Part shown: piece by piece, positions 352-46,289 of the stretch
How positions within the stretch are numbered: position 1 is the first letter of the stretch
Layout: every line of letters starts with the position of its first letter
Origin: Candidatus Latescibacterota bacterium
Lineage (GTDB): Bacteria; Latescibacterota; UBA2968
Length of the DNA stretch: 64,000 bases
Assembly: GCA_965207885.1 (NCBI GenBank)
Contig: OZ242311.1
Location: 6,016,001-6,080,000, forward strand
Direction: 5' to 3'
Notes under the pieces: generated by a model
Database searches by the model: none
What the model saw: only the letters and a program-made list of their open reading frames with translations
Told to the model about the DNA's origin: nothing
Translations under genes and position numbers: made by a program

Positions 352-3075
352 GTGATGCGCTCTGTATATTTTCCTCTTCTGATCTGTCTTTTGCCGCTTC
401 AGGTACTGGCAAGTTCGCCGCCCTATCAAAAGGTCGCCGATGTTTCGCTTGCTGGTTCGCTTTCTCTCCAGCATTATCGCCTCGCCAATGGCCTTCAGGT
501 TGCGATTGTGGAGGACGATACCAGACCTGTTGTGACATGTCAAATCGCCTATCGCGTGGGGTCTTCTCACGAAGCACCCGGCAGGCAGGGCATGGCGCAT
601 CTGGTCGAGCACCTGGCAGTGGTTCGCTCATTCCCAAAGTCATTCTACCTTTTGGACGCGCCACACGCCAATGCCAGTACGTCGAAAGATGGTACGAAAT
701 ACTACGCCACGGTTCCCAAAGCGCAGCTGGATACGCTGATCGCCTGTTTTGCCTGGGGTATGACGCAGTTTGATGTTTCGCAGGAAGAATACGATCTCGA
801 AAAAGAGGTCGTTCTGGCTGAATGGGCGCGCAGCGCCAATAGTGCGCGTCGGCTTTTGTATAAAAAGATATATGCCCGCATGTTTGCAGGGCATCCCTAT
901 CGGTACGATATTCTGGGTCATCGTGATACGATTAAGACTTTTACTCTGGATCAAGCGATTGTATTTCACAGGCGTTATTACGTGCCAAACAATGCCTGTC
1001 TTGTAATTGTCGGCGATGTGAAAGGGGCTGATATTTTACCCGTTGTAGTTCAACATTTTGGGGAAATTCCAAAGCGCTATGGGTTTATTCACGACGATAT
1101 TGATACGCTGGATGTCACATCTGTCTCCCAGGATTCCATTCAATATACAACTGCGTTGCATTCTTCTGTTTGGGGTGTTTGGCATATTCCGACAGATACG
1201 CATCCGAATTTTTATCCTTTGTATTTGTTTGATAAAGCTCTTTTTGAAGGTGAATATTCTCTTGCTCGCCAAAGGCTAATTGGTCCGGGGAAAGTTCTCG
1301 GGGTAAATTCCTATTTTCTCAATATGCGCGATAAAGGGCTGTTTTATTATATAGCTGACTTACCCTCGGGTGCGCGTTATGACTTTGAGGCAATGCCGCG
1401 AATTATTCAAACAGCTGTCGATTCTTTGTCTGAGGATCATCTTTGGCTGGCGAGAAACGAAGCGCGTAAGATTTTATATCGCACAATAACCAGTCAGTCC
1501 CGTCTGGCAAATATGATCTCTTCAGGATTCATTCGCACCAGTGATCCCGCCCATCGTCTCAAGTGGATGCAGAATCTCGATGGCATTACGATAGCGGATG
1601 TCAAGCGGGTGGTGAAGCAATATCTTTTGGACCAGCCGCCCCGCACCTTTGTCCTGATCTCTTTTGAGGAGCCAGCACCATCATGGAACGTGTGGCTTTA
1701 TGTGGGTATTGTGTGGGTTCTCGTGGGATTGGGAGGATACTGGTACTGGCGACGGCGAGTACTTGCGGTTGGATTATTTGCAGTCCTTTGCAATATTTCG
1801 GCAGCAGATGCAGAGATCCCCAATCACAAGATATATTACGTGCAGGACACGCGCGTGCCGCAAACGCGGCTTTCAATGAGGTATTATACAGGAGGGGATC
1901 TGCAGGAGACAATGGATACACGTGGTTTGTCTTTTGCGTTTTTTCGCCTGAATGATCTGGCATTACACGGAGAAGATAAAAAAGAGATGGACCGGCTTGG
2001 CGCAGAGTTCTGGTTCAATATTTCCGATCAATATGTTACCGTTAACCTGACCGTGTTTAGCGAAAATTTGGATGCGGCTTTGAGACGCCTGAAGGTGATG
2101 ATGAGAGATCTCACATTCTCTAAAGAACTGCTGAACAGGGAAAGGGCGCGGATCATAGACGATTTTGAGGATTACGTTGATGACCATGAGGTAACAGAGA
2201 TTTTTCGCTATCACCTGTACAAGTCTGACAGAGACCGGCGGGAGGGCACGCGCACAGCACTTGAAAATTTGACAGCACAGGACTTGCAACAATTTTGGAA
2301 TCAAACCTTGCGCGCAAAAGTCCTCTATTTTAGAGTGACTTCTGATCTGAGTAAGTCGGAAATTGAACGCAGTTTGCGCGTGATGACCCACAACCGGGTT
2401 CGAGATGGGTTTTCGCCACGTCCCCGTCCAAAACGCAAAGAGATTACGGGTAAGCGCGCTTTAATTTTGCCAAGCCCCCATCCGGCTGATTTTTGCAATT
2501 TGATAACAAATGGCTTGCCTCGCACAAATGAGGATTGGTTTGCACAAGCGGTTTTGGTCAATGCGCTAAACCGTCTGTTGTTCATTCGGCTTCGCGAACA
2601 AAAGGGCTGGTGTTATTCGGCTGGTGTGAGTATTCAGGAATGGACATCACCGCCAATACTGCATTTTGGGGCTAATCCTCGAAGTGTTTATACTTCTCAA
2701 CTTGTTCCCGAGATGTTTCGGTTGATTAACCATTTTTTGTCCGAGCCAGATTTTTGGGCGCAGGTGGAGAAAGGTCGCGAAAGGCTCAAGCGGGCGTATC
2801 ATTTGCAACTCGGTCCGCAGCCCAGACTCAGTCAGCAAGTGCGCTACGATCGCGATGGGGTGCCCGCGCTTTCGCTGGAGGAATACGAATCGGCTATTGA
2901 TCGGGTGACGGAAGAAGATATTCGCCGCGTTTTCAAAAGGATGCTAAAAGGTCAGAACAAATTGCCATTGCTGATGCTTATTTATGGGAATACTGACAGC
3001 ATTGAGACCGTATTGGATCACGAGGATATCAAGGCGAGGACGACGGTTTTTGATATTCAGACTCTGCTTGAATAA
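352..3075 (+). CDS. M16 (insulinase/pitrilysin) zinc peptidase; active and inactive halves joined by a membrane segment
   Basis: Signal peptide; YRVGSSHE..G.QGMAHLVEHL (HxxEH); NASTS..GTKYY; YYVPNNA.LVIVGD; C-terminal half has RLREQKGWCY. Confidence 0.85.
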   Translation: MMRSVYFPLLICLLPLQVLASSPPYQKVADVSLAGSLSLQHYRLANGLQVAIVEDDTRPVVTCQIAYRVGSSHEAPGRQGMAHLVEHLAVVRSFPKSFYLLDAPHANASTSKDGTKYYATVPKAQLDTLIACFAWGMTQFDVSQEEYDLEKEVVLAEWARSANSARRLLYKKIYARMFAGHPYRYDILGHRDTIKTFTLDQAIVFHRRYYVPNNACLVIVGDVKGADILPVVVQHFGEIPKRYGFIHDDIDTLDVTSVSQDSIQYTTALHSSVWGVWHIPTDTHPNFYPLYLFDKALFEGEYSLARQRLIGPGKVLGVNSYFLNMRDKGLFYYIADLPSGARYDFEAMPRIIQTAVDSLSEDHLWLARNEARKILYRTITSQSRLANMISSGFIRTSDPAHRLKWMQNLDGITIADVKRVVKQYLLDQPPRTFVLISFEEPAPSWNVWLYVGIVWVLVGLGGYWYWRRRVLAVGLFAVLCNISAADAEIPNHKIYYVQDTRVPQTRLSMRYYTGGDLQETMDTRGLSFAFFRLNDLALHGEDKKEMDRLGAEFWFNISDQYVTVNLTVFSENLDAALRRLKVMMRDLTFSKELLNRERARIIDDFEDYVDDHEVTEIFRYHLYKSDRDRREGTRTALENLTAQDLQQFWNQTLRAKVLYFRVTSDLSKSEIERSLRVMTHNRVRDGFSPRPRPKRKEITGKRALILPSPHPADFCNLITNGLPRTNEDWFAQAVLVNALNRLLFIRLREQKGWCYSAGVSIQEWTSPPILHFGANPRSVYTSQLVPEMFRLINHFLSEPDFWAQVEKGRERLKRAYHLQLGPQPRLSQQVRYDRDGVPALSLEEYESAIDRVTEEDIRRVFKRMLKGQNKLPLLMLIYGNTDSIETVLDHEDIKARTTVFDIQTLLE

Positions 3076-29692: not shown

Positions 29693-30391
29693 TTATGACA
29701 GATCTTTCCATTCGTCAATGGTCGGTGTATTGATATCTTCGCGATAGATGACTTTGCCCTGAATGGCACTGCACACTTCTTCAGCCGGTATAGGAATAGA
29801 ACCGAGTTCTATAAGGTGGGCATTGTCCGGTGAGTCCAGGACGAATACCGGCTTGTTTTGAGCGAGTGCGTCTTTGCATAGCGTCTCTGTTTTGCCACCC
29901 GGTTCTGCGTGGGCGATGAGGATGCAGTCGGTGAGTGCAGCGATGTGTGCGTTGCGCCGGGCTGCTATGGCTGCGGTTGGGCGATGGATGTTGCCGTTGA
30001 AAAAGGAAAGGATTAGTAGGCGTCCTTCGGCGAGCGGTTTCTTCCAGTTTTTCGGCGTTCGCATGCGGCTGAGTCCCCGTGCCGGGCAGACGACAACGGG
30101 AGCCGTACCCCGCAACAACAGATCCAGACACTCCTTCTCCATTGGCGACTGAAAACCGCCGATGATCGTCGCGTCTGTATCTCGTAACGTCCGTGAGAGA
30201 TCGTAGGTCTTGAGGATTGTATCGCCGGGAGCGCGCACCGAACAGAAGAAGCTGAGCAATGTACTGTCGAGTACATTGAGGTTGCCCTGCGCTGTGACCG
30301 TCAATAGCTGCCCATTATCGGAACAACGCCGTAATGCCGCTGGATAGTCAGGAGTATTGGGCGTTAAAAGTATTTTGTTCTCAGGATTCAT
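29693..30391 (-). CDS. DprA/Smf-like Rossmann-fold protein (short, no wHTH)
   Basis: YP..L....GNL.VL, FFCSVRAPG, IIGGFQSPMEKECL, RRNA.IAAL, AEPGGKTE. Confidence 0.7.
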   Translation of the reverse strand: MNPENKILLTPNTPDYPAALRRCSDNGQLLTVTAQGNLNVLDSTLLSFFCSVRAPGDTILKTYDLSRTLRDTDATIIGGFQSPMEKECLDLLLRGTAPVVVCPARGLSRMRTPKNWKKPLAEGRLLILSFFNGNIHRPTAAIAARRNAHIAALTDCILIAHAEPGGKTETLCKDALAQNKPVFVLDSPDNAHLIELGSIPIPAEEVCSAIQGKVIYREDINTPTIDEWKDLS

Positions 30392-30398
30392 AGCAAAT

Positions 30399-30626
30399 TT
30401 ATGACTCAACGGATTCCTCTAAATCGCCTGCCTTGAGTGCTTCATATTCGCGCAAGTCGTCCTCAAGGTCGGCAAGCTGGCTCTGGATTGCTTCCTTTCT
30501 TGCTTTGAGCAATAGCGGATGGATGCCTGAAGATTCAGCTACTTCCTTCTCCAGTTCCCGCAAAGCTTGTGAGAAACGATCAGCCTGAGCGCTGGTTATT
30601 TTGTACTGGTGCTCGTTTTTGATCAT
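30399..30626 (-). pseudogene. Truncated XRE-type antitoxin/regulator (N-terminal helical domain only)
   Basis: MIKNEHQYKIT..QADRF..AL...IHPLLLKA..EAIQSQLADLE..LREYE.LK; the HTH that usually follows is absent. Confidence 0.55.
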
Positions 30627-30656
30627 GTAATTCAGTTCGCCCTATTAGCATCGCAC

Positions 30657-30878
30657 TCAGGCTCTAATTTCACCGAGTGCGATGTCTTCGATGATGACCT
30701 GTTTGAATATCTCTGGATCATCTAGCCGCTTCATGGCGTCGAGAATTTCAATGCCCGCGAGGCGGTCTTCCTCATCGTAATCCAGCGCAATCCCGTCTTC
30801 GAGATGTTTCGTTGTCACTGTTGTTTCTTTGAAGCAAATGTACAGTGCATCCACCTCTCGATCATAAGATATTTTCAT
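30657..30878 (-). CDS. DUF2283 family protein (putative antitoxin)
   Basis: MKISYDREVDALYI...IALDYDEEDRLAGIEILDA; start ATG 30878. Confidence 0.85.
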   Translation of the reverse strand: MKISYDREVDALYICFKETTVTTKHLEDGIALDYDEEDRLAGIEILDAMKRLDDPEIFKQVIIEDIALGEIRA

Positions 30879-30919
30879 TGTTATTTTCTCAAAAAATCGA
30901 AGTTCGCAGGCGGTTGTTT

Positions 30920-31225
30920 TCAAGCAGGCTGATAGCGTTTGACTTCTATCTCATCAGCCCGCGCCCGCATTTGCGCGGCGTCGTACCACGCCTGCATTCG
31001 CAACAGTGTGTCCATGCTGATGCCAAAGGCTTTCTCAATACGCAGCGCCATCTCCGCAGATAGGGTCGCGCTGCTATTCAACAGGTCAGAAAGAGTGTCC
31101 TGAGGAACGCCCAGAATCTCAGCTACATCTGCGACGCTTAATCCCAACTCCTCGACGATTTCCGTGCGGATGAAATCGCCGGGATGCGAAGGCGTCATAG
31201 TTATCTTAATGCCGTTGTCAGCCAT
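30920..31225 (-). CDS. higA: HigA family antitoxin (HTH)
   Basis: PSHPGDFIRTEIVEELGLSV..AEILGV...LSAEMALRIEKAFG.S.DTLLRMQAWYD; start ATG 31225. Confidence 0.88.
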   Translation of the reverse strand: MADNGIKITMTPSHPGDFIRTEIVEELGLSVADVAEILGVPQDTLSDLLNSSATLSAEMALRIEKAFGISMDTLLRMQAWYDAAQMRARADEIEVKRYQPA

Positions 31226-31360
31226 TAGTGATAATCTTTCAAGTGTAATAAAAATCCCGCGCTGGAATGACCAGACGGGATTTTTGTAATGTACGCCAGT
31301 GTTTGGAACAAAAAACAAATTACGTCCTGATTTCGCCACTTGTACAACACCTGCCATTGT

Positions 31361-31579
31361 TTATCCGAGTTTAACCAGAATCAGCATTCCAAGTGTTACA
31401 ATCGTGGTGACCTGGATGCCGACCAGCCAACGAAAGTCTGTTCTGGCTGCTTGTTGAATTTGCTCAACGCGATTCTCAAGGCTTGTCAAGCGCGTGCTGA
31501 TTTGCTCAACAATGCCTTCAATACGGCTCAAGCGGGCGTCAAATTCTGCCAGCTTGTCTTGTGGTGTCGGAACCTGCAT
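31361..31579 (-). CDS. Small coiled-coil protein with C-terminal TM helix (DUF1640-like)
   Basis: RLSRIEGIVEQISTRLTSLENRVE...DFRWLVGIQVTTIVTLGMLIL; AGGAAAG RBS. Confidence 0.65.
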   Translation of the reverse strand: MQVPTPQDKLAEFDARLSRIEGIVEQISTRLTSLENRVEQIQQAARTDFRWLVGIQVTTIVTLGMLILVKLG

Positions 31580-31657
31580 GGAAAACGCTTTCCTGAATTT
31601 GGTAAGGGATTAGCAGACCTATCAGTAGCCACTGATTCTGAGCATTCATTTTTTCAC

Positions 31658-32088
31658 TTTCCTGTAGGAAGCCACGTCCTTTGGGCGTGGTCAGAGATAG
31701 TTGGCTTTGCCGTTAAGCCGTTTTGTGGGTATATTTCGCAGGTGCTATCGTAGCGCACACAAAGGCACTCTCTTTGAGAGTAAACGGTTTCGGTGTGGGA
31801 GAGCACACAAAACCCTCTCTGTGATGTTAGTTGAGAGGCAGATTTGGCAACAACAGCGGTATGGATTGCGGTTGTGTTGTCGTCAAATCTGATGGGCATA
31901 GTTAGGGGCCTGACCTCCCAAACCTGCGGTAGCAATCCGCTGCTGTCAACTGCCCTGAAGTCTCGCCACGCAGTGAGCGGTTTAAACCTAAGCCCTTGCT
32001 CGGATATGCTGCATTGCCTCCAATGGGTGGGTCAAGCACCTGGGGGTGTGGCAGGGACAAGCCACCTGCTCAGCAGGTGGTGGTTGAC
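31658..32088 (+). mobile_element. Non-autonomous IS200/IS605 mini-element (431 bp, no ORF) carrying an omegaRNA
   Basis: Left end: TCAC|TTTCCTGTAG-GAAG-CCACGTCC-TTT-GGGCGTGG. Right end: CAAG-CCACCTGC-TCA-GCAGGTGG-TGGT-TGAC|. The GAAG/TCAC and CAAG/TGAC pairs obey IS608 guide/cleavage-site pairing rules. Confidence 0.85.
31707..31735 (+). promoter_or_regulatory. Promoter inside the mini-element
   Basis: TTGCCG (31707-31712), 17 nt, TATATT (31730-31735). Confidence 0.6.
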
Positions 32089-32108
32089 AATTATCATCTC
32101 TGAATGAT
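31944..32108 (+). ncRNA. Stand-alone TnpB omegaRNA (reRNA) scaffold plus predicted guide AATTATCATCTCTGAATGAT
   Basis: Collinear with the TnpB right end at 45090-44986: TGTCAAC, CCT.AAGTCTCGCCA, CCAATGG, GTCAA.CACC.GGGG, identical TGTGGCAGGGACAAGCC, GTGGTTGAC. Confidence 0.8.
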
Positions 32109-32188
32109 TTAGCCTACTAACAGAGATATGTCAAGAGATATTTTTCTTTTACTGATTCGCTTCCGAAAAATGGCACAGTCTTATCCAT

Positions 32189-32275
32189 TCAATCCGATTC
32201 CTCAATAATTTCCATGCGGATGAAATCGCCGGGATGCGAAGGCGTCATGGTTATTTTAATGCCGTTGTCAGCCAT
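32189..32275 (-). pseudogene. Truncated second higA copy (28 aa)
   Basis: MADNGIKITMTPSHPGDFIRMEIIEESD*, nearly identical to the N-terminus of higA at 31225. Confidence 0.8.
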
Positions 32276-32447
32276 CAGTAATAATCTTCCAAATGTAATA
32301 AAAATCCCGCGCTGGAATAACCAGACGGGATTTTTGTAATGTACGCCAGTGTTTGGTAAGAAAAAAACAAATTACGTCCTGCTTTCGCCACTCTGAGCAG
32401 GCCATTGAGAGATTACCCGAGGGGCAACGATTTCCCATTTGCGTGAC

Positions 32448-33440
32448 TTATTGCCCTTTGACATTCGAATGGCTGTTTCCACCGCGTTTCGCGTCCCGGG
32501 CTTCCTCGTTGATGCGGCTTGTCTCTGACTCTGGGGGGAGGTTTTGAGTCTCATCATTCATCTCCTTGAATTGACCTACGAGGGTCAGTCCTTCGTTAAG
32601 CTTGGGGATTAGTGCATCAAAAATTGCATCTAATTCCGGTAACGGATTTTGAACCTTCAGTCCAATTTTTTTGGCTTCGTCCGAATCAATGACAAATCCA
32701 TGCTCAGGATATTCTTCCACTAAACTCTGTGCAATCTTTCTTGCTTCTTCTTCTGTGTGTTTTGAAGATAGCAAACGGATAGCATACTCTTCAGCTACTC
32801 GCAAAACGCGTGCCATTTGTGTATAGTGAACCGCGTCGATGTTTTCGATCAAGGGCCGTATAAAATTGGCTGTATATTCAAGGGTATGCGGCAAAATTGA
32901 ATCTATCTTTTTTCCCGTTCGCCCTATAAGCAGCCACATAGTCTGATCAAAAACCTCAATCGCAGCGGCATTTAATCTATGAAGAGTGTGAACCTCGTCA
33001 AGTGCCGAAATAATACCCTCTCTTTCAACATCTGCAAGTTGGGCGTCAAGTGGTCCCAACTCGGCATCTAACCCCATGCAAATGTGCTGTGCGCCCAGTG
33101 CCAAAAGCGTGGCTGCGCTTTTGGCATATCGGGGAATGAGGGCTATAAAACCGGCTCGCCGATTAAAAAGCCGAGCAATCTGATAAGCTACTCGCGCATC
33201 CCCGCCAAGTGAATCTATCAATAGCAGTGCTGGTTGTTCTGAGGATATCTCGCGCTTTCTTTCCAAAAATTCATGTTGCAACCCATCACGGATTGGGTTG
33301 TTGTCAAAGAGGAATAGCCAAAGTGGTAAGTTCTCAAATTGGTTTCGCAAATCACATAGCAGATGAACAAGGTCGTCGTCTAGTTCGCCTTCTTCTCCAG
33401 GATATATGTCAGCGATATATTTCTTCTGATTTTGAGACAT
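32448..33440 (-). CDS. SDH-family Clp-fold serine protease
   Basis: LLIDSLGG, IPRYAKSAATLLALGA, ELGPLDAQ, YPEHGFVI. Confidence 0.8.
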   Translation of the reverse strand: MSQNQKKYIADIYPGEEGELDDDLVHLLCDLRNQFENLPLWLFLFDNNPIRDGLQHEFLERKREISSEQPALLLIDSLGGDARVAYQIARLFNRRAGFIALIPRYAKSAATLLALGAQHICMGLDAELGPLDAQLADVEREGIISALDEVHTLHRLNAAAIEVFDQTMWLLIGRTGKKIDSILPHTLEYTANFIRPLIENIDAVHYTQMARVLRVAEEYAIRLLSSKHTEEEARKIAQSLVEEYPEHGFVIDSDEAKKIGLKVQNPLPELDAIFDALIPKLNEGLTLVGQFKEMNDETQNLPPESETSRINEEARDAKRGGNSHSNVKGQ

Positions 33441-33642
33441 TTATCTTTCTCCCAAACCAATCATCCCTAATGATTTAAGCCATTTTAAATAGATGTGTCA
33501 AGAGGTATTTTTGTTTCACTGATTCGCGTACTATGATCAGTGTGTTTAGTGAATGGCAACATCCAGGTCAATGTGCCGTAATCGTCCCTGCAGAACTCGT
33601 CTGGTTCTTGCAACGTCTTATTTTACATTGGATAGCAACGGG

Positions 33643-43510: not shown

Positions 43511-45004
43511 ATGCGCGTGGGCATTATTTCGCTGTTGCACGAGTCGAATACGTTTATCAGCACGCCAACGACTATGGATTCGTTCCGACGGGACGGGATT
43601 TTTACGGGTCGGGCGATGTATGATCACTATTCGGGTGGACATCACGAAGTTAGTGGGTTTTTAGAAGGTTTGGAGTCGGCAGGCATAGATGCTCTGCCGA
43701 TTTTTCATGCGGGTACAACGCCTTCTGGACGCATTACCAGAGGGACGTGTGAAGAATTGATGCGGTTGATGTTTGATGAGGTGGAGGCTGTGGGTGATGT
43801 GGATGGGTATCTCGTGGCACCTCACGGGGCAAATTCGGGTGAGGGCGATGAGTACCGCGATCTGGATGGGCACTGGTTGTCGCGTTTGCGCGAGGTGGTT
43901 GGGTCTGAGAAGCCGATTATTTGCACGATTGATCCACATGCCAATTTGTCGCCGCGCATGGTTGCGGCGTGCGATGCGACGATTGCCTATCGCTCGAATC
44001 CCCATCTCGATCAGAAACAGCGGGGGTTGGAAGCTGCGTCGTTGATGGTGCGAACGCTGAAGGGGGAGGTGAAGCCTGTACAAGCGGGGGCTTTTCCGCC
44101 TATTGGGATTAATATTGAGCGTCAATCGACTTTTGCGCCGCCGTGTTTGCCGATGTATGAGTTGGCAGATGAGATGCTGGAAGAGACAGGTGTTTTGTCG
44201 AATAGTATTGTGCTGGGTTTTCCGTATGCCGATGTGGAAGAGATGGGGTCGGCATTTGTGGTGGTGACAGATGGTGATATGGACCGGGCACAGGTGCTGG
44301 CGAATCGTCTGTCGGATTGTTTGTTCGTACATCGTGCGGAGTTTGTGGGAGAGTATATCGCTGTTCCCGATGCTGTCGATATGGCGGTGGGACAAGAGGG
44401 TCCTGTTTGTTTGCTCGATATGGGCGATAATGTAGGCGGGGGATCTGCCGGCGATGGTACGGAGATTTTGCACGAGTTACACAGGCGAGGGAATACCACG
44501 GGCTTTGTGTGTATTTTTGATCCGGAATCGCAGGAGCGAGTGCGAGATGCAGGGGTTGGAAATCGCGTGGTGCTGGATATTGGTGGTAAGACGGATGAGT
44601 TACATGGTGCGCCTTTGAGGGCAGAGGTGCGGGTGCGCAGTTTGCACGCGGGGAAGTACAGAGAATCTGAGGTGCGACACGGCGGGCGAACGTCTTTTGA
44701 TATGGGTCCAACGGCGATTGTGGAGACGGATACGGGTATTACAATTAGTTTGACTTCGCGGCGCGCGGTGCCCGTGAGTCTGGGGTTGATGACGAGTTGC
44801 GATCTCGATCCCGCTGCGTTTCAGGTGGTTGTGGCCAAGGGTGTACACGCGCCTGTTGCGGCGTATCAGCCGGTGTGTACGGCTTTGATTCGGGTGGATA
44901 CCCCCGGCGCGACAGCGGCGGATATGCGAGGTTTTGAATACGAGTTTCGCCGCGAGCCGATGTATCCCTTTGAGGAGATTGGGGTGTCAACCACCCCCGG
45001 CTAA
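43511..45004 (+). CDS. M81 family (MlrC-like) metallopeptidase
   Basis: HESNTF, PHGA, DPHANL, YRSNPH.D, DMGDNVGGG..GDGT; last five residues are supplied by the IS end. Confidence 0.88.
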   Translation: MRVGIISLLHESNTFISTPTTMDSFRRDGIFTGRAMYDHYSGGHHEVSGFLEGLESAGIDALPIFHAGTTPSGRITRGTCEELMRLMFDEVEAVGDVDGYLVAPHGANSGEGDEYRDLDGHWLSRLREVVGSEKPIICTIDPHANLSPRMVAACDATIAYRSNPHLDQKQRGLEAASLMVRTLKGEVKPVQAGAFPPIGINIERQSTFAPPCLPMYELADEMLEETGVLSNSIVLGFPYADVEEMGSAFVVVTDGDMDRAQVLANRLSDCLFVHRAEFVGEYIAVPDAVDMAVGQEGPVCLLDMGDNVGGGSAGDGTEILHELHRRGNTTGFVCIFDPESQERVRDAGVGNRVVLDIGGKTDELHGAPLRAEVRVRSLHAGKYRESEVRHGGRTSFDMGPTAIVETDTGITISLTSRRAVPVSLGLMTSCDLDPAAFQVVVAKGVHAPVAAYQPVCTALIRVDTPGATAADMRGFEYEFRREPMYPFEEIGVSTTPG

Positions 45005-45090
45005 AGCCTGTGGGCTTGTCCCTGCCACATGATTCCCCCGGTGGTTGACACCACCATTGGGGGTATGGCGAGACTTTAGGCTTGTTGACA
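44966..45090 (-). ncRNA. omegaRNA of the TnpB element; predicted guide ACCCCAATCTCCTCAAAGGG
   Basis: Overlaps the tnpB 3' end and the right-end hairpin; 5' GTCAAC is complementary to 3' GTTGAC. Confidence 0.75.
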
Positions 45091-46277
45091 CAAAGCCCTT
45101 GCCCGGATGTTCCGAGCAGCGTTGCGGTCGGCATGGTCTTTGTGACCACACACTTTGCATCTGAAGGATGCCTGGGTGTGTCTATTGCCTTTCTCACAGT
45201 GTCCACACTCGGCACACGTCTGGCTGGTATATTTGGGGTCAACAGGTTTTATGCGGATACCAGCACGCTTTGCCTTGTATTCGACGAATGTGCGGAGCTG
45301 GAAGAAAGACCACCCAGACAGTTTAGCACGTTGAGGCTTGCGAAACCGTTTCTGGCTCTTGCGGATGCCTTCGAGGTCTTCAAGGGCAATGGCTTTGCCA
45401 GTGTCTTTAGCCTTCTCAACAATGCGCTTAGAGATGATATGGTTGGTGTTCCTGCGAAACCTGCTCTCTCTACCAGAGATAACAGAGAGTTTTCTACGGA
45501 CATTCTTCGGCCTCTTGCCTTGCTTGACAAGAGCAGACGCTTTCTGTTGGAGCGACTTTTTCAGATCGTGCATCTTCTGTCGGACATTTTCAACCGTGTC
45601 GCCAGAAAATGTTTCACCATCGTCTGTAACAGCAAGGTTGGTGGTGCCGAGATCAACGCCAATGAAGTCTGTCGTCGGTATCGGCGTGCCGTCGGGTACA
45701 TCGACAGAGACAAGCAGAAACCACTTGCCGTCTTTGCGGAGCACAAGGTCTGCTTGCCCTTTGGCATAGCCAAACTGCTCACGCTGATAGTTGCCCATCA
45801 ACATTGGCACAAGCACGCGCCCTTCAAGGGTGAGCAACGAAACACGATCTATGCCCTTAAAGCTATACAACCGTTGATCATAGGGCATAGCAGCAGTTGG
45901 GCGAAACGACGGTTGCACCGTTTTATCGCGCTTAAATGCTTCTACAACCTGGGCAATGCAACGGATAGCCATTTGTGCGGACAAACCAAATTGGCGACGC
46001 AAGTCTGAATAGTACAACTTTTGTAGGGCAAACTTATTCGCCAACGTGCGCTCATAAGCCTTCGATGCAAGATAGTTGGCAGCCTCATTGAACCGTGCAA
46101 CAGTCGCTTTTAGCTTCTGGCCTGTGGCAACGTCCGGCAACAGTTGTATTTGAAGTGTGAGTTTCATATTGACAAATATACTCAGCATAACACGCTTTGG
46201 TAAGGATCAATTTGCTAAAGCAAAACAAATTCTAAGCCCTTACCTCCCAAGTTTAAAAACTTCGGCATCACGGGCTT
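44986..46277 (-). mobile_element. IS200/IS605 family element, tnpB only (IS1341-like), 1292 bp
   Basis: Left end TCAC|AAGCCCGT-GATG-CCGAAGTTT..AAACTTGG; right end CAAG-CCCACAGGCTTTAGCCGGGGG-TGGTTGAC|. Removing it restores GAG ATT GGG GTG TGA and the surE RBS. Confidence 0.88.
45076..46167 (-). CDS. tnpB: RNA-guided endonuclease TnpB
   Basis: RuvC D-E-D intact (IGVDLG, IALEDL, HADRNAARNI); zinc finger CAECG...CKVCG. Start ATG 46167 lies 7 nt after TATATT, suggesting a leaderless mRNA. Confidence 0.95.
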   Translation of the reverse strand: MKLTLQIQLLPDVATGQKLKATVARFNEAANYLASKAYERTLANKFALQKLYYSDLRRQFGLSAQMAIRCIAQVVEAFKRDKTVQPSFRPTAAMPYDQRLYSFKGIDRVSLLTLEGRVLVPMLMGNYQREQFGYAKGQADLVLRKDGKWFLLVSVDVPDGTPIPTTDFIGVDLGTTNLAVTDDGETFSGDTVENVRQKMHDLKKSLQQKASALVKQGKRPKNVRRKLSVISGRESRFRRNTNHIISKRIVEKAKDTGKAIALEDLEGIRKSQKRFRKPQRAKLSGWSFFQLRTFVEYKAKRAGIRIKPVDPKYTSQTCAECGHCEKGNRHTQASFRCKVCGHKDHADRNAARNIRARALCQQA

Positions 46278-46289
46278 GTGAGGTGATTT

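Follow-up and report, generated by a model that had tools for sequence, protein, structure and literature searches.

We analysed a 64,000-nt stretch of DNA (the window; positions 6,016,001 to 6,080,000 of contig OZ242311.1 of a Candidatus Latescibacterota bacterium) and found that its positions 31658-32088 are a well-bounded, non-autonomous mobile element of the IS200/IS605 insertion sequence (IS) type that lacks an open reading frame (ORF) and resembles the elements called PATEs (hereafter the mini-element). As judged from alignments and a covariance model, the 3' part of the mini-element is a homologue of the right-end (ωRNA) module of a TnpB element found 13 kb away (T1) and of the second copy of that TnpB element in the same genome (T2). 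The best explanation, to which we give a probability of roughly 0.72, is that the mini-element is a non-autonomous member of the IS200/IS605 family that keeps ends readable by a TnpA transposase, a promoter-like site and an ωRNA-like module used by TnpB in trans. The kept ends would be of the single-strand-transposition type used by an IS200-like TnpA lineage of the genus, and the kept RNA module would be structured, about 145 to 250 nt long and homologous to the right-end ωRNA module of the TnpB elements represented by T1 (T-type). The features of the mini-element are as follows (a caret marks an element boundary or insertion junction).

31658-32088, + strand: mini-element of IS200/IS605 type, PATE-like, 431 bp, without a protein gene (four own-genome copies with sharp boundaries; 13 copies from 8 genomes aligned).
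31653-31657, + strand: target, or transposon-adjacent motif (TAM), TTCAC, with its core TCAC at 31654-31657; in the flank, outside the element (8 of 9 independent sites have TTCAC and 1 has ATCAC; sister empty sites end in ...TCAC^).
31658-31690, + strand: left end, read from the sequence, with a 10-nt linker, the guide GAAG (31668-31671) and the hairpin CCACGTCC-TTT-GGGCGTGG (31672-31690).
31707-31735, + strand: promoter-like site TTGCCG-17-TATATT (9 of 12 positions; not above shuffle expectation; putative function).
31839-31891, + strand: long interior hairpin (RNAalifold, 9 copies; 8 pairs changed on both sides).
31898-31957, + strand: best-conserved interior block, ending in TGTCAAC-TGCCC-TGA (75-100% identity between subfamilies A and B, see below).
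31944-32088, + strand: predicted ωRNA-like core, 145 nt, with P1 (TGTCAAC/GTTGAC), P2 (GTCTCGCCAC/GTGGCAGGGAC), an extra hairpin, P3 (CCTCC/GGGGG) and the right-end hairpin (RNAalifold, covariance model R1).
32058-32088, + strand: right end, read from the sequence, with the guide CAAG (32058-32061), the hairpin CCACCTGC-TCA-GCAGGTGG (32062-32080), TGGT and the cleavage site TGAC (32085-32088).
32089-32108, + strand: flank AATTATCATCTCTGAATGAT, the would-be guide, by its position, if the RNA reads through.

A first-pass annotation, made from the letters of the window, had described a 431-bp element with no protein ORF. The longest ORFs across the mini-element are indeed only 93 (- strand) and 87 (+ strand) codons long, and translated searches for TnpB and TnpA against six mini copies gave nothing significant (best E of 0.06-0.23, with a database of six short sequences). 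No inverted repeat pair was found by a repeat search of 30300-33600, and the mini-element has no terminal inverted repeats; both of its ends carry subterminal palindromes that can form hairpins.

The mobility of the mini-element is demonstrated by its copies and by exact empty sites, and its behaviour is that of IS200/IS605 "peel-and-paste" elements. Its own genome, assembled as one 6.23-Mb contig, contains four copies (100, 99, 90, and 88% identity), and the similarity among them stops exactly at TCAC^ and GTTGAC^, the junctions foreseen at first pass. The first-pass annotation had set a single-copy remnant of a decayed tnpB against its own proposal; the mini-element is present in four copies and gave no significant translated tnpB match. 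Full-length minis were found in 8 of the 21 genomes of the genus, this genome (G000) counted, and among the 61 related genomes searched they were confined to that genus. The 13 copies form two subfamilies: A with ten members, including one 5'-truncated copy, and B with three members that are about 60-70% identical to A. At all nine independent sites (shared sites counted once) the insertion follows (T/A)TCAC. Copies at differing sites across five genomes are 98-99% identical. Empty alleles in related genomes, another expectation of the first-pass annotation, were also found: for three of the four own-genome copies, sister genomes have exact empty sites without target duplication, which are …CCATTTTTCAC^AATTATCATC… for copy 1 (G013, G012, and G015), …CACACTTCAC^ACTTCCCC… for copy 2 (G014) and …AAATTATCAC^ATAGTCAAGA… for copy 4 (G017, G008, and G012), the last with both flanks homologous. 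The left flank of copy 1 is homologous for only about 11 nt in the empty sites because this region is variable, being rearranged between sister genomes. A direct repeat of about 250 bp (31144-31392 and 32194-32392; 172 nt at 91% and 31 nt at 97%) lies on either side of the mini-element and a 72-amino-acid ORF (31361-31579, - strand).

Three further observations concern the distribution of the copies. In G009 (C2:883300-883600) three tandem ACTTCAC units directly precede the junction at the empty site of copy 2 (…CACACTTCACACTTCACACTTCAC^ACTTCCCC). One insertion site is occupied by different subfamilies in two species (G000:C1:1821442-1821870 and G020:C1:3519936-3520377); its right flank is 93.7% identical over 1484 bp and the elements are about 74% identical over 343 bp and less elsewhere, which could be due to an old orthologous insertion that then decayed fast and neutrally, to gene conversion within the element or to insertion more than once at this site. 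Finally, a pattern scan of species genomes returned 10 loci in Latescibacterota records. One locus in an Acidobacteriota record from the same scan was unsupported, and a metagenome scan gave two matches, neither of which was supported by the covariance model. The public records that contain the element are labelled as Candidatus Latescibacterota metagenome-assembled genomes (MAGs).

The ends of the mini-element link it to TnpB and TnpA elements in different ways. According to the available part of the IS608 study, the four bases at the 5' foot of each hairpin recognise the cleavage tetranucleotide (PMC3201880). The first-pass annotation had read the ends as TCAC^...GAAG-hairpin and CAAG-hairpin...TGAC^, and both structures are found in the sequence as claimed. 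Predicted sites at element ends were derived with a pairing order that matches bases 1, 2, and 4 of the site to bases 2, 1, and 4 of the guide, respectively, and at each of the following ends the predicted site is the observed one.

Mini-element, left end: guide GAAG, site TCAC.
Mini-element, right end: guide CAAG, site TGAC.
T-type TnpB element, left end: guide GATG, site TCAC.
G6-type TnpB element, left end: guide GAAA, site TCAT (4 of 4 copies).
IS200-type tnpA element, left end: guide AAAC, site TTAG.
IS200-type tnpA element, right end: guide AAAG, site TTAC.
IS605 of this genome, left end: guide AATC, site TTAG.
IS605 of this genome, right end: guide GAAT, site TCAA.

The right ends of the G6-type and T-type elements have CAAG and TGAC, identical to those of the mini-element. 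Given that the guide rule fits every end listed, the first-pass reading of the ends, in which GAxG specifies TCAC and CAAG specifies TGAC, is right. The left hairpin of the mini-element and its geometry recur in sister genomes, both in the IS200-type tnpA element and in TnpB elements, and positions 31678-31697 in the left-end hairpin region are 93% conserved between the subfamilies. The G6-type elements, whose left end is nearest to that of the mini-element and whose TnpB is 83-90% identical at the DNA level, nevertheless have the target TCAT in all four copies. Thus, the target tetranucleotide of the mini-element is that of the T-type TnpB element (TCAC in 4 of 4 T-type copies) and not that of the elements with the closest left end. 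The shared TCAC target had been noticed at first pass, and this match independently favours the partnership of mini-element and T-type TnpB that was proposed then.

The RNA module provides the second link to the T-type elements. Over its last 145 nt (31944-32088) the mini-element aligns collinearly with the final 105 nt of the T-type TnpB element, with the blocks TGTCAAC, AAGTCTCGCCA, TGTGGCAGGGACAAGCC, and GGTTGAC shared in the same order, which bears out the collinearity claimed in the first-pass annotation; the difference in length corresponds to an extra hairpin of about 40-48 nt in the mini-element. RNAalifold predicted a nested fold for eight distinct mini cores, with compensatory changes at 5 of 41 pairs, and the right-end hairpin also has compensatory changes between the subfamilies. 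A covariance model built from minis alone (R1) gave eight matches over the own genome at E up to 1. Four of them are the minis (166-172 bits), and two are the right ends of T1 (47 bits, E of 6.5e-11) and T2 (46.4 bits), both matched end to end. The remaining two are weak (E of 0.007 and 0.1) and resemble the right ends of other IS types. R1 matched none of the other 17 tblastn TnpB matches in this genome, of which 12 are at 33-38% identity over the C-terminal 220 residues and 5 are shorter. In sister genomes, the right ends of G6-type elements scored 48-53 bits. In an alignment of 15 sequences of the mini, T and G6 types, 99% of the cells are paired and 13 of the 41 pairs are changed on both sides, a number reached by none of 500 shuffles, while slid controls gave 0-2. 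Positions 31918-31957 are 88-100% identical between subfamilies that are otherwise 60-70% identical. A search of Rfam gave no match at the gathering score over the whole window and only chance-level ones (E of 0.34-6.5) in 31400-32400. The two weak R1 matches (G000:C1:5466218-5466268 and 5134974-5135111) read AAGCCATCCGC-TCT-GCGGATGG…TTTAC and AAAGCTACCCGC-TCC-GCGGGTGG…TTTAT, respectively.

The candidate partner in the window consists of the following features.

44986-46282, - strand: T-type TnpB element T1, 1297 bp, inserted after TCAC at 46283-46286 (four T-type copies share sequence from TCAC onward; the flanks abut in sister genomes).
45076-46167, - strand: tnpB, 363 amino acids, apparently intact (Pfam PF07282 and PF01385).

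The TnpB of T1 appears to be intact, in that its RuvC and zinc-finger motifs (GVDLG, LEDL, ADRNAARNI, and CxxC...CxxC) align with those of the Cas12f/TnpB-like solved chain 8j12_A (E of 7.5e-31). The second tnpB copy, in T2 (genome positions 404204-405292), encodes a protein that is 98% identical. The first-pass annotation had ended the T1 element at 46277; the element actually spans 44986-46282, and its target is the outer TCAC at 46283-46286. Among the sister genomes compared, the insertion at this site was found only in this genome, and its flanks abut without the element, the left flank ending at TCAC, in G007, G015, G020, G010, G017, and G014, for example. We had considered the left-end hairpin of T1 as disrupted. 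This was rejected, as the sequence is the same in three of the four T-type copies and it is T2 that deviates. Of the 21 genomes of the genus, 11 were found to have a full-length TnpB of the T-type family, among them 5 of the 8 mini-bearing ones. For the mini guides, the genome contained no TCAC-plus-guide site elsewhere with up to 3 mismatches in 16 nt; for the T1 guide, there was one such site, with 3 mismatches. Many further guide matches with up to 3 mismatches are attributed to chance.

These findings are consistent with a sequence of events that would begin with rightward transcription of the mini-element across its right end. The RNA would then be trimmed to the scaffold plus about 16-20 nt of flank. 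TnpB was reported, in the part of the source available, to process its own mRNA into ωRNA (PMC10278001), and trimming of a longer mini transcript is therefore plausible. The trimmed RNA would be bound in trans by the product of tnpB at 45076-46167 or by the 98% identical protein of T2, and the complex would cut TCAC plus the flank, i.e., the vacated site of the same copy, which would favour restoration of the element by recombination. Movement itself would depend on a Y1 TnpA supplied in trans. With regard to the first of these events, the internal promoter named in the first-pass annotation is present as a sequence (31707-31735), and every copy, in subfamily A as in B, has a -10-like hexamer at the corresponding alignment position. 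In addition, TGAGTATATT is common to the promoter-like region of the mini-element and the region preceding the T-type tnpB start.

RNA-library contigs from three studies contain the element. One example of 264 nt lies wholly within 31782-32045, and no RNA-library contig spans the right flank of the 31658-32088 copy. Another contig of 374 nt (X5 record 16), over 31758-32088, passes the right end of another copy by 17 nt and then enters an A-run; its 17-nt flank is matched in none of the 21 genomes of the genus, so that the A-run could be either a genomic A-tract or the poly(A) tail of an RNA carrying a 17-nt guide. Among the RNA libraries, those that contain the largest part of the stretch carry the label sponge metagenome.

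Several observations weigh against the use of this RNA by TnpB in trans. TTGCCG-17-TATATT is the one such site in 1 kb and shuffles have a mean of 0.9, so the promoter motif alone is not evidence. The RNA-library sequences are assembled contigs without strand or ends, and carry-over of DNA is possible. The match between mini and T-type elements is limited to the 3' 145 nt, at about 77% identity and with a 40-nt insertion. The most conserved mini block (31898-31943) has no detectable T-type counterpart: the score of its anchored alignment to the 3' end of tnpB was equalled or exceeded by 647 of 1000 shuffles. The mini scaffold may therefore not be fully compatible with the TnpB of T1. The covariation comes from few lineages (two mini subfamilies and two TnpB-element types), in a 15-sequence alignment fitted to the model, and constraint at the DNA level could contribute to it because the element moves as a single strand. 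Moreover, no TnpB of the T-type family was found in G010, G020, and G007, i.e., in 3 of the 8 mini-bearing genomes, and thus minis and TnpB do not strictly co-occur. It should be noted that G007 is a draft of 280 contigs, with fragments of T-type ends at contig edges.

The transposase is a further point against. The cognate IS200-type TnpA, whose element bears the hairpin of the mini-element, is intact in only 1 of the 21 genomes of the genus, not in this one, and G006, which encodes it (154 amino acids), has no mini-element. Elsewhere in the genus it is decayed (G001) or reduced to a 36-residue fragment (G009), and otherwise only proteins that are 27-38% identical were found. The first-pass annotation had proposed that the mini-element borrows TnpA. 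This was not supported for its own genome, in which the single Y1 transposase is 30% identical to the cognate type and is situated inside an IS605 whose hairpins (CCCAAGTC…GACTTGGG) are unlike those of the mini-element. As no cognate TnpA was found, the own-genome copies are probably stranded at present. The left end of the T-type element resembles that of this IS605 in having a linker of 13 nt, CCCAAGT/ACTTGGG as the inner stem and also an outer stem, which suggests that the TnpB element and the mini-element depend on different transposase types. The IS605 itself (G000:C1:1449428-1452781, locus about 1252-3075) contains the only tnpA of the genome (139 amino acids), which overlaps by one base with a 367-amino-acid tnpB of another family; its ends read TTAG^…hairpin CCCAAGTC-CTTCA-GACTTGGG and …CCCAATGC-TTCA-GCTTTGGG…TCAA^.

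Given these points, the mini-element might instead be an inert relic, i.e., a deletion derivative of a TnpB IS that spread under a past TnpA and is now stranded, with a structure that was inherited or is kept for single-stranded DNA ends, and with no RNA from it used by TnpB. The cognate TnpA is absent from this genome and from most of the mini-bearing genomes, and no family TnpB was found in G010 or G020, as would be expected of a relic. Signs of decay point the same way: the right-end guide of copy 3 is altered to CAAT, and one copy, in G017, is truncated at its 5' end. Descent from the 3' end of a tnpB is also suggested by TGTCAAC-TGCCC-TGA, which is in register (as TGTCAAC-NNNCC-TGA) with TGT-CAA-CAA-GCC-TAA, the last codons and stop of the T-type tnpB. 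A 47-nt collinear nucleotide match between the mini-element and tnpB, around codons 228-242, scored 42 against a maximum of 40 in 200 shuffles; it could be cited for such descent, but falls on CT/GA-rich palindromes and was not counted. A relic would not be expected, however, to show conservation and compensatory changes well beyond the end hairpins, in P2, P3, the extra hairpin and the long interior hairpin, or to keep 31918-31957 at the identity given above between diverged subfamilies. Nor would it be expected that the target tetranucleotide agrees with that of the T-type TnpB element and not with that of the elements most similar at the left end, or that copies at different sites in five genomes are nearly identical. 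We therefore regard the relic explanation as unlikely, and prefer a mini-element whose RNA module is used by TnpB in trans.

A more elaborate version, which seems to us quite improbable as a whole, is that the mini-element is a three-way chimera that parasitises two transposon lineages. Its ends (CCACG… hairpin, 10-nt linker) would come from the IS200-type TnpA lineage, its target and RNA core would be tuned to a TnpB with the other left-end type (CCCAAGT… hairpin and 13-nt linker, like the only IS605 of the genome), and its RNA may act beyond TnpB-guided retention. The last part is suggested by the 98-99% identity kept in genomes that yielded no TnpA of its type and no family TnpB, and by the conserved block that is absent from TnpB elements. 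That the mini-element is an exapted or independent noncoding RNA, i.e., a transcript of about 350 nt with a role unrelated to TnpB (e.g., regulatory or antisense into a neighbouring locus) that rides on transposon ends, would fit its persistence in genomes where no family TnpB was found, the strongly conserved block without a counterpart in TnpB elements and the long covarying interior hairpin, but is highly unlikely given that no Rfam family matches it, that its copies are in unrelated contexts and that its similarity to TnpB elements covers precisely the guide-RNA module of the right end and stops at the boundary of the transposon.

A mini-element that provides its RNA to TnpB in trans would have precedents, described here from the parts of the cited papers that were available. 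Standalone mobilised ωRNAs without effector or transposase, situated beside effector loci, were reported to be functional in trans (PMC10691335, citing Altae-Tran et al. 2021). The mini-element resembles them as a mobilised guide-RNA locus that encodes neither nuclease nor transposase and shares its genome with effector loci. It differs in that its predicted partner is a TnpB in Candidatus Latescibacterota, in the extra hairpin of about 40 nt and the long 5' extension, and in its DNA hairpins, whose end type is not that of the predicted partner element. The PATE elements of the IS605 family in Geobacillus stearothermophilus "often encode ωRNAs," on which TnpB of other IS elements would act in trans (Meers et al. 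2023 preprint, PMC10055086). These are likewise minimal IS200/IS605 elements without protein genes; in contrast to the mini-element, for which no cognate TnpA was found here, their genome has an active candidate TnpA whose ends match. Given that standalone trans-acting ωRNAs and ωRNA-bearing PATEs are in print (PMC10691335, PMC10055086), the mechanism and the trans guide-library idea put forward at first pass are not new.

The behaviour of the mini-element also fits the published definition of PATEs, as far as the available part of that study goes (PMC3119063). Like the PATEs of Haloquadratum walsbyi, it has no inverted terminal repeats, near-terminal palindromes related to IS605, no target duplication and a length too short for a transposase, and in both cases there are high-identity ("homogeneous") families and strain-specific insertions with almost no intact IS200-type transposase. 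The H. walsbyi study differs in that it concerns an archaeon, predates the ωRNA and, in the part available, draws no link to RNA or TnpB (PMC3119063). IS608 of Helicobacter pylori is similar in that 4 nt at the 5' foot of the hairpin specify cleavage and in that the left site is outside and the right site inside the element. The cleavage distances are 19 and 10 nt in the available description of IS608, whereas the left site of the mini-element is 14 nt from the hairpin foot and its right site starts 4 nt after the hairpin (PMC3201880). The mini-element is a well-bounded natural transposon that appears to carry guide RNA only, with empty-site proof of mobility, in an uncultured lineage. It suggests that the modules of IS200/IS605 elements, i.e., the TnpA-read ends, the target motif and the TnpB-read RNA, are recombinable, since in the mini-element the target motif follows the TnpB partner and the hairpins follow another transposase lineage. 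It also offers a test set for trans-loading of TnpB, with one nuclease, two scaffolds that differ by a 40-nt hairpin and six natural guides.

Other repeats were found that involve the flank and the left-end hairpin of the mini-element. Its right flank at 32093-32160, and with it most of the would-be guide, recurs at 75% identity at 33460-33527, 1.4 kb downstream. The left-end hairpin sequence CCACGTCCTTTGGGCGTGG occurs with up to 2 mismatches five times elsewhere (G000:C1 near 1875465, 1876578, 1880841, 1895276, and 5323081). Four of these sites are clustered in a stretch of 20 kb; three of them, together with the site near 5323081, belong to a repeat of about 150-200 bp. All five stand between A and T runs 5-8 nt long, an arrangement that resembles a bidirectional terminator or a repetitive extragenic palindrome (REP).

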